From the NCBI RefSeq assembly GCF_045037415.1, contig NZ_CP173438.1: 64,000 nucleotides of DNA. One strand, given 5' to 3'. Source of the DNA: Escherichia coli (GTDB taxonomy: Bacteria > Pseudomonadota > Gammaproteobacteria > Enterobacterales > Enterobacteriaceae). The position numbers were made by a program. This document shows, piece after piece, positions 42,001 through 44,703 of this stretch. The first letter of the stretch is position 1; every line of letters starts with the position of its first letter.

Positions 42001-44703
42001 GCGATGTTTAAATCAGGCAAAAATGGGCCACGCGTAAAAGGTAGTTATTGATATCAAAGGCCCATGGGGATCGGCTGTGGGCCTGTGTTAATTAGTGGTT
42101 ATTCGCTGCCAGATCGGCTTCGCTTAGCTGAGTGGCCGCGAGCACCTGATCACGATCAATGCCCTGTTCCAGCATGCGCAAAGCAATTTTAATGGCTTGT
42201 TCATGCATGCCTTCCTGCAAACCTTCTAATTTACCTTCTTGCCAGCCTTCAATCTTACCCTCCTGCCAGCCAATTTGATGTCCTTCCTGCCGTAGCCGTT
42301 CAGCAATAGTCATCAATCTCTCCTTTTAATGACAGTTCGGAATATCAGCATCAGTGAGTTGGGTTGCCGCCAGCACAATCTCACGTTCAAAGCCCTGCTC
42401 CAGCATGCGCAAGGCAATTTTAATGGCTTGCTCATGCATGCCTTCCTGCAAACCTTCTAATTTACCTTTCTGCAAACCCTCCAATTTACCTTGCTGCAAA
42501 CCTTCTAATTTACCTTCTTGCCAGCCTTCAATTTTACCTTCTTGCCAGCCAATTTGATGTCCTTCCTGCCGTAGCCGTTCAGCAATAGTCATTAATCTCT
42601 CCTTTTGTAGTGGTGAACGTTCGGCAATCTCCTGAATAAAGCGGGTGAAACGGGAGGTATCGCCGCATTGCAGCAGATAATTAAACAGTGTTTGTAGCTG
42701 GCTGTCATTAGTGAAGTCTCTAACCAAAAGCGTGGTGATCCTGTCGACCATACCGATTAAATCGCGGTCGCGAATATGCTTTTGAATCAGTTCCAGCAGA
42801 GCTATACGCCGATGTTGCATGATCTCATCGTCAGGTACGATGGTGATATCCACCAACGGAAAAGCTTCGGTGTACAACTGCCGGGCAAGTTGCGGATCGT
42901 CAAACTCATCCAGCCAGTTGAGTGAGTACGGGTAGGGCGAGGCTTCGCCATGATAAAACAGCAATGGCACCACCAGCGGAACTCTGTCATAGCCTTTATC
43001 CAGGTGACGCTGCATGGCGGCAGTGGCATAGCGCATTAGCCGAAAAGCCATATTCTTTTCTGCAGAGCTTTGATGTTCAATCACGCAGTAGATATAGCCG
43101 TCACCCTCGCTGGTTTCCACGGACCACAAAACATCCGAGTAGTAAGCGCGTAAACTTTTTTCAATAAAACTGGTGGGTTCCAGGCGTAAGGTTTGCAGGT
43201 TGCAAAGCTTGCGCAGCGGCTCTGGTAGATGTATTTCCAGAAAATCCCGTGCGGTTTCGGGTGTGAACATAAAGGTTTTAAACACCGCATCATGCGGGGA
43301 GGAGGTTGTTGATTCGGTCATGGTTGTCCGTCACCTGATATTTATGATGACGCGACATTACGGTTATCCCAGGCCTTTGATATCTGCCAGTTTCAGCCTT
43401 TGCGAGACGTTTTCAGAGGAATTTTCACTGCGTTGCAACGCATACATTGGGCACGGAATCGTGTACGCAAAAATGCCCGGTAACAACATGCTTACCGGGC
43501 ATCAGAAAGGAGTTTAAGCCAACGCCTGTGCCAGCAGCGTAATCGGATGTTCGCAGCGAAGACTTGTGGACATCTCAATCTGCCATTTGCAGGTTTCGCA
43601 GTCGGTGACCACCAGATCTGCGCCGCTCTCTTCTATCTGGCGGAACAGTGGTGCGCCGATGGCTTGTGAAGTGGGGTAGTTCTCTTTTTTGAAACCGTAA
43701 GTTCCCGCAATACCGCAGCACTGGGAATCCAGCACCGTTAACTCAAGCCCCGGGATTTTACGCAACAGCTCCAGGGTGTAGAGCGTCCAGCCCATTTTTT
43801 CCATATGGCACGGAGTGTGATAAACCACTTTCAGCGGCAGCGGTTTCAGCGGTAACGTTTTGCCTTCGTCCAGCTTGCGCCACAGCCAGCGGGTCGCCAG
43901 TTCGATATGATCGCGCAAGCCTTTGTTGTCGACATTCAGCACTTCTGGGTATTCGTCGCGCAGGGCAAATGTACACGTTGAGGAGGTGGCAATCACCGGA
44001 ATGCCTTTTACTCCCACAGCTTCGCGGATCGACTCTACATTCGTAATTGCCTGTTTGCGTGCTTTATCGGTAAAACCGTTGGCGATCAGCGGTACGCCGC
44101 AGCATTTTTCTTTACTGAGCAGTTGTACGCCGGTATCCATCGCGTTGAGCACTTTAATTAAATCTTTGCCTAGTTGCGGATGGTTGTAGTTAACGAAGCA
44201 GCCGTGAAAGAAAGCGACCTGGTCTTTATACTGCGCTTGCTGAGCCGCCACGCTGCGATACCAGCGACGGAACGTGCCGAAGGAGTATTTCGGTAGCGTG
44301 CGGCGATGATCGATTTTTAACGCCGCATCAAGCAGCTGACGCACCGGTTTCAGCGAGGTAGCGGTGTTGACGATGGGTGCGAACGGCGTGGATACGCTAC
44401 CCATCAGGTCGGTATGACTCAACACAAAATTACGCAGCGACGGGCGCGTGGTGTCATATTTCGCCCGCGCGCGCTGGATAATATCGCCAATCTTCACATC
44501 GGACGGGCAGGCGACTTCACAACGTTTGCAGTTGATGCAATATTTCAGCGCCTCGTCATACAGTGCGCCATCTTTCAAACGCAGACGCTCGCCATCCGGC
44601 CCGGCTTGTTTTGGCCCCGGATAACCCGGATTCACCCGGCTCACCGGGCAGGCGGTGGTGCAGACGGTGCACTTAATGCAGTTTTCGAAGCTGGTGTCGT
44701 TCA

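Follow-up and report, generated by a model that had tools for sequence, protein, structure and literature searches.

A probable Rpn gene-within-gene module with a tandemly duplicated small gene and variable 12-nt repeat arrays at rpnE–ypaA of Escherichia coli

Introduction

The rpn genes specify two products, the toxic nuclease RpnL and an antitoxin, RpnS, which is made from an internal start (Zhong et al., 2023; PMC10400941). Binding and neutralisation of RpnL by RpnS have been demonstrated for RpnA, RpnB and RpnC, and protection against phage has been demonstrated solely for the plasmid RpnP2 (PMC10400941). Residues D11, D63, E82, Q84 and R94 are required for the activity of RpnA, in which D165 lies in a PDDE motif (Kingston, 2017).

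The layout of rpnE–ypaA and its strain-variable four-residue repeats are already known, having been described in 2023. The product of ypaA was detected and named "RpnE_Ss", and the 4-aa repeats vary among strains and set RpnS–RpnL specificity (PMC10400941). For RpnC, neutralisation was lost when repeat numbers differed by one unit; repeat number decides RpnS–RpnL pairing (PMC10400941). In K-12, internal initiation of RpnE_S and translation of YpaA were revealed by Ribo-RET peaks and SPA tagging (bioRxiv 10.1101/520783, Meydan et al., 2019; PMC10400941). When overexpressed as the whole gene, RpnE of K-12 was the sole paralogue without toxicity, SOS induction or an effect on recombination (Kingston, 2017).

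Here, we analysed this locus in a contiguous stretch of 64,000 nt from an E. coli genome (NZ_CP173438.1), referred to as the window. K-12 has the same locus, with the same internal start, 12-nt spacer and two tail types, and the source strain carries an allele of the published system. The two strains differ in length (RpnE 299 aa in K-12 versus 331 aa in the source strain; YpaA 61 versus 73 aa), with 0 and 1 extra repeat units in K-12 versus 8 and 4 in the source strain. They also differ in annotation: the NCBI pipeline (PGAP) calls ypaA a coding sequence in K-12 and a pseudogene in the source strain.

Results

Gene layout and neighbourhood

The locus is located between glpC and rhmA, and its neighbours are metabolic genes (glpABC, rhm) with no defence island. 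Its features are as follows, with positions given in the window.

rpnE (yfaD), 42326..43321, minus strand: ORF of 331 aa, full-length RpnE_L, with an N-terminal PD-(D/E)XK nuclease domain (YhgA/Rpn family) and a C-terminal RpnS domain; annotated as rpnE in RefSeq
rpnE_S, 42326..42592, minus strand: internal ORF of 88 aa, in frame with rpnE from its codon 244 onwards, the putative intragenic antitoxin of an Rpn gene-within-gene system; a Shine-Dalgarno sequence (SD) precedes its ATG at 42592
SD AAGGAGAGA of rpnE_S, 42596..42604, minus strand: within the rpnE coding sequence (codons K-E-R), read from the sequence
rpnE repeat array, 42434..42565, minus strand: 11 consecutive 12-nt units GAAGGnnnnnnn, encoding E-G-x-x, of which 8 are extra relative to the shortest allele; delimited by unit table, Tandem Repeats Finder (TRF) and strain comparison
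rpnE E-type tail, 42326..42388, minus strand: 20 residues and stop, with DNA ~58% identical to the ypaA tail
SD AAGGAGAGA of ypaA, 42317..42325, minus strand: directly after the rpnE stop codon (TAA, 42328–42326)
ypaA (RpnE_Ss), 42092..42313, minus strand: ORF of 73 aa that repeats the RpnE_S module as a stand-alone gene
ypaA repeat array, 42203..42286, minus strand: seven 12-nt units, including 4 extra ones; delimited by unit table, strain comparison and TRF
ypaA Y-type tail, 42092..42157, minus strand: DRDQVLAATQLSEADLAANNH and stop
GC-rich hairpin, 42058..42084, strand not assigned: between the convergent genes rhmA (yfaU) and ypaA, a terminator-like site on the plus strand

The ATG of ypaA is only 12 nt past the stop codon of rpnE. 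The hairpin is likely a bidirectional terminator that would also act on the minus strand, closing the rpnE–ypaA transcription unit. A consensus scan of 41950–43560 returned this hairpin as its sole terminator and no sigma-70-like promoter (0 found versus 2.0 expected); the latter null result therefore gives no support either way for the internal promoter reported in K-12. A tblastn search of the window identified no other rpn paralogue, and placed YpaA at 72% identity to RpnE residues 240–331. In the source strain, PGAP labels rpnE as 'ISNCY family transposase' and ypaA as a pseudogene ('incomplete; missing N-terminus').

Domains and predicted structure of RpnE and YpaA

RpnE matches PF04754 over residues 8–209, covering model positions 1–202 of 203 (E = 7e-88), and scores well above the cutoffs of two NCBIfam models (NF007418, 716 bits, cutoff 583; TIGR01784, 180 bits, cutoff 52). 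All six of the RpnA residues introduced above (D11, D63, E82, Q84, R94 and D165 of the PDDE motif) are kept at the corresponding positions. Precomputed matches assign the HTH_Rpn_C family (PF27070) to the products of both rpnE and ypaA; our direct scan of RpnE, for which the Pfam-A set did not include PF27070, returned PF04754 and a weak match to Yae1_N. PADLOC (PADLOC-DB 2.0) assigned no defence model to either protein, with a weak and irrelevant 'putative invertase' match for RpnE (E = 2e-4) and nothing for YpaA.

The AF2 model of YpaA, of moderate confidence (pLDDT 70.8), contains three helices (residues 3–49, 54–61 and 65–71), with the repeats located within the first. Its best Foldseek match was RpnA-S (PDB 7TH0; probability 1.00, E = 0.08, TM 0.72 on the target). 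Using phmmer, the N-terminus of RpnE_S was also matched to 7TH0 (12/13 residues), and the sequence match extends to both sides of the repeat insertion. Several hallmarks of the Rpn gene-within-gene family are found in rpnE: the arrangement AAGGAGAGA-TTA-ATG at codon 244 of 331, an array start that fits the expected 8–20 residues after the methionine, and a repeat number that varies among strains. As described for RpnSs genes, ypaA follows directly downstream of the parent gene as an ORF in its own right, equipped with an SD and ATG, and its product is closest to the parent's RpnS.

The small gene is duplicated as a whole

The earlier note, made from the sequence of this stretch, had described ypaA as a tandem partial duplication of the rpnE 3′ end. 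Local alignment of 42092–42327 with 42330–42606 gave a score of 103, against 9.0 ± 1.1 (maximum 13) for 500 dinucleotide shuffles. At z = 85, a lack of similarity between the two segments is excluded and the duplication is confirmed. The two copies form a direct repeat of 179 nt (42113–42291 and 42344–42522; 78% identity, ungapped). Within the window, the 33-mer TCCTTCCTGCCGTAGCCGTTCAGCAATAGTCAT occurs in two exact copies, which begin at 42281 and 42560, one base later than the 42280 and 42559 previously given; the 48-nt segments 42280–42327 and 42559–42606 differ by one mismatch. The length of the duplication had been put at the last ~90 codons of rpnE, in agreement with the codons 240–331 found here (KERL plus 88 codons), and in both copies homology starts 14 nt before the ATG.

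The copied unit in ypaA thus spans the AAGGAGAGA SD through the stop codon. As had been proposed, this ribosome-binding site is present in both copies, 3 nt upstream of the ATG in each (42604–42596 before the ATG at 42592; 42325–42317 before the ATG at 42313). The proposal that ypaA can be translated independently holds as well, given the intact SD and ATG in both copies and the K-12 Ribo-RET and SPA tagging results (bioRxiv 10.1101/520783; PMC10400941). Because the ribosome-binding site that was carried along is the internal translation start of rpnE, the duplicated unit is the whole small gene and not an arbitrary gene tail.

A functional aspect that the earlier note did not contain is that the shared ribosome-binding site corresponds to the internal start of rpnE from which the RpnE_S antitoxin is produced.

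The two tails have diverged exactly as quoted before (..TDADIPNCH in RpnE, ..SEADLAANNH in YpaA). The 5′ 170 nt of the two copies are 93–97% identical and the tails ~58%. From the tails, the duplication had been called old. This is borne out by E. fergusonii, E. marmotae and a cryptic Escherichia clade, which share the 12-nt spacer and have both types of tail, with the restriction that ancient divergence is limited to the final ~21 codons. Since ancient divergence is confined to the tails and arrays have been exchanged between the copies (see below), the duplication is old, but homogenisation is ongoing. A published statement that RpnE-C is 98% identical to YpaA (bioRxiv 10.1101/520783) was not reproduced; the K-12 sequences give 46/61 identical residues.

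The arrays consist of 12-nt units

The arrays had been described as 24-bp units encoding eight residues, five in rpnE and three in ypaA. These counts stand if a degenerate first unit, EGHQIGWQ, is included. The elementary unit, however, is 12 nt long and encodes E-G-x-x, with 11 units in RpnE versus 7 in YpaA. Glycine occupies every fourth residue throughout these 11 and 7 consecutive units, which start at residue 10. Tandem Repeats Finder reports a 24-bp period (42210–42271, 2.6 copies; 42441–42545, 4.4 copies), a super-period that arises because two 12-nt unit types alternate. The ypaA array corresponds to the initial part of its rpnE counterpart and lacks 48 nt encoding 16 residues, which leaves YpaA of the source strain with 4 fewer units than RpnE.

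Two profiles, Yae1_N of Pfam (E = 4e-4) and FliH of NCBIfam (E = 2e-12 to 9e-7), also matched the repeat segment weakly. Homology to either family was rejected, as the scores fall far below the family cutoffs and reflect a shared G-x-x-x periodicity. FliH/YscL proteins contain GxxxG glycine-repeat helices, and Yae1/Lto1 proteins a deca-GX3 motif. The likeness to the rpnE and ypaA arrays, glycine at each fourth position over many turns, is one of shared composition and not of homology.

Array length and copy number vary among strains

We compared the arrays of 49 loci and counted tail types in 5,426 complete E. coli genomes. YpaA-type proteins in public genomes are 57, 61, 65, 69, 73, 77, 81 or 89 aa long, and RpnE_S ranges from 56 to 88 aa. 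The expected variation in repeat copy number is therefore real, in steps of 12 nt (4 aa) rather than 24 nt. Among the DNA alleles (26 ypaA-type and 18 rpnE_S-type), lengths differ solely by multiples of 12 nt and all 44 are in frame. Slipped-strand mispairing, which had been suggested as the cause, is plausible; unequal recombination or gene conversion fits equally well.

The arrays of rpnE and ypaA vary independently, and of the 13 combinations observed, 12 are unequal. Within a genome, RpnE_S and YpaA thus mostly differ in repeat number. A stricter rule, that the two numbers are never equal, was true in the first 16 two-copy genomes and was refuted by one lineage (L025–L031), in which both copies have 4 extra units and the two arrays are identical. 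The same 5-unit array belongs to rpnE in some strains and to ypaA in others, in reciprocal 5/0 and 0/5 configurations (59/60 nt identical), and chimeric tails are present (P0008, P0064). Array exchange has occurred in nature; its frequency, regulation and adaptive value go beyond these data.

Two copies are present in ~55% of the 5,426 genomes and one fused copy in ~44%. The E-type tail was found in 3009/5426 and the Y-type tail in 5372/5426; in single-copy strains, the fused rpnE ends in the Y-type tail. Among alleles, pN/pS was 0.19 for ypaA and 0.13 for rpnE_S. ypaA is under purifying selection, which indirectly supports that its protein is made. E. fergusonii, E. marmotae and Escherichia sp. 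E2593 share the duplicated layout. The E. marmotae copy of ypaA has a frameshifted tail, and SD, ATG and ORF are intact in all sampled two-copy genomes of E. coli, E. fergusonii and the clade. On this distribution, the duplication is as old as the genus, with ypaA kept since before the Escherichia species split.

Discussion

Proposed organisation of the module

Taken together, we consider it very probable that this locus is the Escherichia rpnE–ypaA module of the Rpn (YhgA-like) gene-within-gene family of toxin–antitoxin and antiphage systems. In RpnE_L, a PD-(D/E)XK nuclease domain is followed by a three-helix domain at the C-terminus, and initiation at codon 244, from the internal SD and ATG, would yield the C-terminal domain alone, RpnE_S. 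By analogy with RpnA, RpnB and RpnC, RpnE_S is expected to bind RpnE_L via their shared long first helix and thereby restrain the nuclease. An ancient tandem duplication of the SD-to-stop small-gene module gave rise to ypaA (RpnE_Ss), and the rpnE transcripts most likely serve for the translation of ypaA too.

Gain or loss of E-G-x-x units is predicted to lengthen or shorten the first helix, a type of change that in RpnC alters RpnS–RpnL pairing. The two arrays change independently and are also swapped between the copies by recombination, and unequal recombination between the copies has probably deleted one of them in the ~44% of E. coli genomes with a fused gene. Only by analogy can RpnE_L be suggested to be toxic, RpnE_S or YpaA to neutralise it and the rpnE paralogue to take part in phage defence. 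A role of RpnE_L as a toxin, the weakest point of this reading, is unproven because K-12 RpnE was inactive on overexpression (Kingston, 2017). Given that YpaA is four units shorter in the source strain and that one unit is decisive in RpnC, YpaA may not act on the resident RpnE_L.

Alternative explanations

Short tandem repeats are prone to misassembly, and the difference between the arrays could in principle stem from collapsed or expanded repeats. We regard the chance of this as negligible. The arrays, of 84 and 132 nt, are below the length of a single read, alleles differ by clean 12-nt steps with unit-specific sequence, and at least 5 independent complete genomes match the 1361-nt locus at 100% identity and 417 at 99% or more. 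Scarcely more credible is a classical contingency locus, in which slippage toggles expression in a phase-variable manner. An intragenic tandem repeat that is hypervariable between strains, in a gene family linked to phage defence, would suit such a locus, but slippage of a 12-nt unit never shifts the frame, in keeping with the 44/44 distinct alleles in frame, and the variation alters helix length instead of expression. It is also improbable, if somewhat less so, that ypaA is a non-functional, decaying remnant of a partial duplication. The PGAP pseudogene flag in the source strain and many others, the ~44% of E. coli genomes that have no separate ypaA and the frameshifted tail in E. marmotae point in this direction. 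Decay is contradicted by the intact ORF, SD and ATG in the sampled two-copy E. coli, E. fergusonii and clade genomes, length changes that are always multiples of 12 nt and never break the frame, the pN/pS of 0.19, the detection of YpaA protein in K-12 and the retention of ypaA since before the species split. The pseudogene reading is thus largely refuted.

A further possibility, which we hold to be unlikely, is that YpaA is not a second antitoxin for the resident RpnE_L but a stored alternative C-terminal cassette, and that recombination with the rpnE 3′ end, by swapping arrays or tails, switches the specificity of RpnE_L and RpnE_S, much as cassettes do in other systems of variation. This would account for array lengths that are unequal in 12/13 combinations, for the identical 5-unit array in either gene with its reciprocal 5/0 and 0/5 configurations, and for the chimeric tails and the fusion alleles that carry the ypaA tail on rpnE. 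The contrast between 5′ parts at 93–97% and tails at ~58% identity indicates repeated conversion. The exchanges, however, are deduced from population snapshots that carry no rate, and homologous recombination would passively produce the same patterns in any pair of tandem paralogues. Moreover, ypaA is translated and under purifying selection, neither of which a silent cassette needs, and the identical arrays in L025–L031 are compatible with a true second antitoxin. In a related and equally speculative form, the locus would be a two-slot store of specificity, in which YpaA, with its usually different repeat number, would be no redundant antitoxin and arrays and tails move between ypaA and rpnE, possibly promoted by the Rpn nuclease itself, and re-programme RpnS–RpnL pairing.

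Significance

With the gene-within-gene module as our preferred reading, the locus comprises a toxin gene with its antitoxin inside, a spare antitoxin that arose by duplication, and 12-nt repeats that would tune the length of a helix. The practical value of the analysis lies mainly in annotation, as the NCBI pipeline still labels rpnE as a transposase and ypaA as a pseudogene in the source strain. To the published description we add the 12-nt steps, the independence of the two arrays, the exchange of whole arrays, the ~55/44 split between two-copy and fused loci and the genus age of the duplication. If neutralisation demands a matched repeat number, the role of a mismatched YpaA is a question that already arose from the 2023 paper; it is sharpened here, an incremental step within a known system. 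If the two-slot store were true, it would constitute a cassette-switching mechanism for a defence system.

Comparison with known systems

RpnA_S (7TH0) is the closest structural counterpart of the small proteins described here. Its 11-residue N-terminus is identical, its C-terminal helices are homologous, and the nuclease residues of RpnA are conserved in RpnE_L. RpnA_S differs in being 49 aa long without a repeat insertion, whereas RpnE_S and YpaA have 24 to 39 additional residues of E-G-x-x in helix 1. Furthermore, RpnA has been demonstrated to be toxic and to be neutralised, while for RpnE both are proposed by analogy.

In some E. coli, rpnC is followed by a duplicate of its RpnS module, rpnC_Ss, an independent case of this architecture (Zhong et al., 2023). 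It involves a different paralogue with the repeat unit KGIE and is found in some strains only, whereas the rpnE–ypaA pair is as old as the genus. A more distant parallel is the TAEL repeat in HsdS of EcoR124I and EcoR124II (cited in PMC10400941), where specificity likewise changes with how many 4-aa repeats a helical spacer contains. In HsdS, part of a type I restriction enzyme, the repeats set the spacing of the DNA target; in Rpn proteins they are thought to set protein–protein pairing.

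Organisation of the rpnE–ypaA locus

Two minus-strand ORFs, rpnE and ypaA, lie between glpC and rhmA/yfaU:

42326-43321, minus strand: rpnE, 331 aa, from ORF reading
42092-42316, minus strand: ypaA, small ORF, 73 aa counted from the ATG at 42313
ending at 43514, minus strand: glpC, flanking the rpnE–ypaA region
ending at 42051, plus strand: rhmA/yfaU, flanking the rpnE–ypaA region

The long ORF is rpnE, named ‘ISNCY family transposase’ in RefSeq records of identical sequence from other strains; the K-12 counterpart of the small ORF is a 61-aa hypothetical protein known as ypaA. 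The strain is not K-12: 42040-43400 is 100% identical in E. coli 4/1-1, R9 and others, while the K-12 alignment covers only 84% of that stretch. The rpnE stop codon (42328-42326) immediately adjoins the Shine-Dalgarno (SD) sequence of ypaA (42325-42317). A terminator scan found no terminator-like site at this junction, and the two genes are therefore likely to be co-transcribed. Between the convergent rhmA and ypaA, a GC-rich hairpin (42058-42084, AGGCCCATGGGGATCGGCTGTGGGCCT) is a probable bidirectional terminator. Another hairpin (43470-43505, GCCCGGTAAGCATGTTGTTACCGGGC), followed by ATTTTTG just downstream of the glpC stop on the minus strand, was absent from the terminator-scan output; it looks like a glpABC terminator upstream of rpnE. 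The only Rfam match at gathering threshold in the window was an ordinary nuoG RNA motif inside the nuo operon (3756-3798), nor did the window yield any tRNA gene.

ypaA is a copy of the 3′ end of rpnE

The earlier note had proposed that the last ~90 codons of rpnE are duplicated in tandem as ypaA. The 33-mer it quoted occurs exactly twice, at 42281 and 42560, and the two 48-nt segments differ by one base. Local self-alignment of the two halves that the note expected to match, 42092-42327 and 42330-42606, scored 103, compared with 9.0 ± 1.1 for dinucleotide shuffles (z = 85), and both the duplication and the arrays of 24-bp period were recovered independently by a repeat search and by Tandem Repeats Finder. 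In each copy homology begins at AAAAGGAGAGATT, 14 nt before the ATG, and runs to the stop codon; the duplicated unit is thus an SD plus ORF, corresponding to rpnE codons 240-331. The ribosome-binding site is present in both copies, as had been noted, but it was not merely carried along: it serves as the antitoxin's functional internal start site. All five rpn genes have in-frame internal starts to which retapamulin-arrested initiating ribosomes were mapped (Meydan et al., bioRxiv 10.1101/520783), and the literature evidence for translation from both the rpnE_S (internal) and ypaA starts is from K-12 only. The same preprint describes the rpnE internal product as similar to YpaA, with 98% identity; unlike this value, K-12 RpnE_S (56 aa) and YpaA (61 aa) shared 46 of 61 aligned positions (~75%).

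Read in the coding direction, each array is a run of 12-nt units, GAAGGnnnnnnn, that encode E-G-x-x:

42565-42434, minus strand: rpnE array, 11 units of 12 nt
42286-42203, minus strand: ypaA array, 7 units of 12 nt

The unit types EGK[IL] and EG[WL]Q alternate, which generates the 24-bp super-period. The ypaA array corresponds to the first part of the rpnE array, in which an additional 48 nt encode 16 residues.

Repeat number varies independently in the two genes

Of 5426 complete E. coli genomes, 5420 have the rpnE locus, whose total length varies. In a sample of 49 loci together with public proteins, RpnE_S measured 56, 60, 64, 68, 72, 76, 80 or 88 aa, and YpaA-type proteins 57, 61, 65, 69, 73, 77, 81 or 89 aa. 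Across 44 distinct DNA alleles, all length differences were multiples of 12 nt. Hence the 24-bp period is real, but the variable unit is 12 nt rather than the 24 nt claimed, and the reading frame is never broken. Counted as units beyond the shortest allele (RpnE_S, YpaA), the window carries (8,4); the other combinations were (8,6), (6,4), (6,2), (5,2), (5,1), (5,0), (4,4), (3,1), (2,5), (1,4), (0,1) and (0,5). Only one of these 13 combinations has equal numbers, and the two arrays vary independently. The idea that the two repeat numbers are never equal was refuted by the lineage of loci L025-L031. Copy number could change by slippage, unequal recombination or Rpn activity, the last being a speculation of Zhong et al. 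(PMC10400941).

Exchange between the copies and age of the duplication

A five-unit array (20 residues) occurs in rpnE of some strains whose ypaA has 0-2 units, and a matching array, identical at 59 of 60 nt, in ypaA of other strains whose rpnE has 0-2 units (loci L007-L009 and L019 compared with L032-L034). This pattern looks like reciprocal exchange between the paralogues. Two small proteins, P0008 and P0064, have chimeric tails in which a middle of 13 residues typical of two-copy rpnE (E-type) is joined to the ypaA-type (Y-type) end EADLAANNH, which indicates recombination inside the diverged tail region too. From the shared array and the chimeric tails it follows that arrays and tails alike are exchanged between the two genes.

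Copy-to-copy identity along the duplicated unit in this window
Leader to IGWQ: 63/65
First four shared units: 46/48
EGMH to EQG: 53/57
Last ~21 codons: about 58%

Over this last segment nearly all synonymous sites have changed, even at conserved residues (VLAATQL). Each of the two tail types is stable throughout E. coli. E. fergusonii, E. marmotae and Escherichia sp. E2593 share the two-gene layout with its 12-nt spacer, so the duplication is older than the separation of these species, in agreement with the earlier suggestion that it is old; the 5′ parts must have stayed nearly identical through ongoing gene conversion. In E. marmotae (L046-L048, 1501-1728), a frameshift at the ypaA C-terminus (...DRDLAARSHPAKRSRSGSE) replaces the Y-type tail; this allele is widespread (96 index blocks).

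Of the 5426 complete E. coli genomes, 3009 carry the E-type tail and 5372 the Y-type tail, so ~55% have both copies. Another ~44%, O157:H7 included, have a single rpnE with a YpaA-type tail, the product expected from unequal recombination between direct repeats.

ypaA is unlikely to be a pseudogene

PGAP annotates ypaA in this strain (42092-42325; L002, 653-886) and in many others as a pseudogene (‘incomplete; partial in the middle of a contig; missing N-terminus’), whereas it is annotated as an ordinary CDS in K-12 and some others. That it is a degenerate remnant is unlikely, since SD, ATG and frame are intact in all two-copy E. coli genomes sampled, the protein has been detected in K-12 (PMC10400941), and alleles outside the array, including fused copies with the same Y-type tail, differ by 18 synonymous and 12 non-synonymous changes (pN/pS = 0.19). 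Both the pseudogene call and the transposase name are inconsistent with published RpnS/RpnSs biology.

Protein family and possible function

RpnE contains a full-length PF04754 domain (YhgA-like, PD-(D/E)XK; E = 7e-88), scores above the NCBIfam equivalog cutoff and retains D11, D63, E82, Q84, R94 and D165, mutation of which alters RpnA activity (Kingston 2017). Precomputed Pfam annotation places HTH_Rpn_C (PF27070) on both the rpnE and ypaA products. An AlphaFold2 model of YpaA (pLDDT 70.8) consists of a long helix (residues 3-49) that holds the repeats, followed by two short helices. Glycine is the second residue of every unit and so recurs at every fourth helix position, 11 times in RpnE and seven times in YpaA. 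Proteins of the Yae1_N and FliH families are known for GxxxG-type repeats. Weak profile matches to FliH (NCBIfam, E = 2e-12 to 9e-7) and Yae1_N (Pfam, E = 4e-4) over the repeat array (RpnE residues 252-303, YpaA residues 3-58) arise from this periodicity, and homology to these families was rejected. The main text of PMC10400941 does not describe the repeats as glycine-every-fourth or GxxxG.

The anatomy, homology, variation, exchange and selection of the locus are observed here. By analogy with RpnA, RpnB, RpnC and RpnP2, full-length RpnE (RpnE_L) would be toxic, RpnE_S or YpaA would neutralise it, and the paralogue may act in phage defence. Caution is warranted for a specific reason: on overexpression, K-12 rpnE was the only paralogue without a toxicity, SOS or recombination phenotype (Kingston 2017), although RpnE_S would have been co-expressed from that construct. 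Some strains have a disrupted nuclease part: in L032 it is split, leaving a 249-aa fragment, L035 has an altered end, and IS2 truncates it in UTME-10 (L018, 1201-1833). Both small ORFs, rpnE_S and ypaA, are intact in L032 (segments of the locus 459-1205, 1318-1488 and 1501-1734); the toxin has thus been lost and the antitoxin ORFs kept.

Comparison with described Rpn systems

The C-terminal 88 residues of RpnE, and YpaA, are homologous to RpnA_S (PDB 7TH0), the best PDB structure match of the YpaA model (probability 1.00). Twelve of the first 13 residues are identical and the last ~36 align, while the repeat array forms an insertion between these parts. According to Zhong et al. 2023 (PMC10400941), the RpnL nucleases are toxic, and RpnS proteins act as antitoxins by binding and blocking them. 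The same study named ypaA ‘RpnE_Ss’ as a second RpnE_S copy, detected it as an SPA-tagged protein, described a similar RpnC_Ss copy downstream of rpnC in some strains, noted that deletion or fusion can remove the downstream gene, and reported that every RpnS and RpnSs protein has 4-aa repeats that differ from strain to strain. One extra repeat in RpnC_S or RpnC_L abolished neutralisation unless both partners had it (PMC10400941). Under this rule YpaA, four units shorter than RpnE here, would be predicted not to neutralise the RpnE_L of this strain, which makes its role the real question at this locus. The earlier observation is confirmed and its interpretation supported with amendments, as a correct rediscovery of a system already described (PMC10400941; bioRxiv 10.1101/520783). 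What is added, namely copy-number change by 12 nt, arrays that vary independently and are exchanged, divergence in a mosaic pattern, counts across genomes and an age at genus level, is useful yet of modest interest, as it lies inside that described system.
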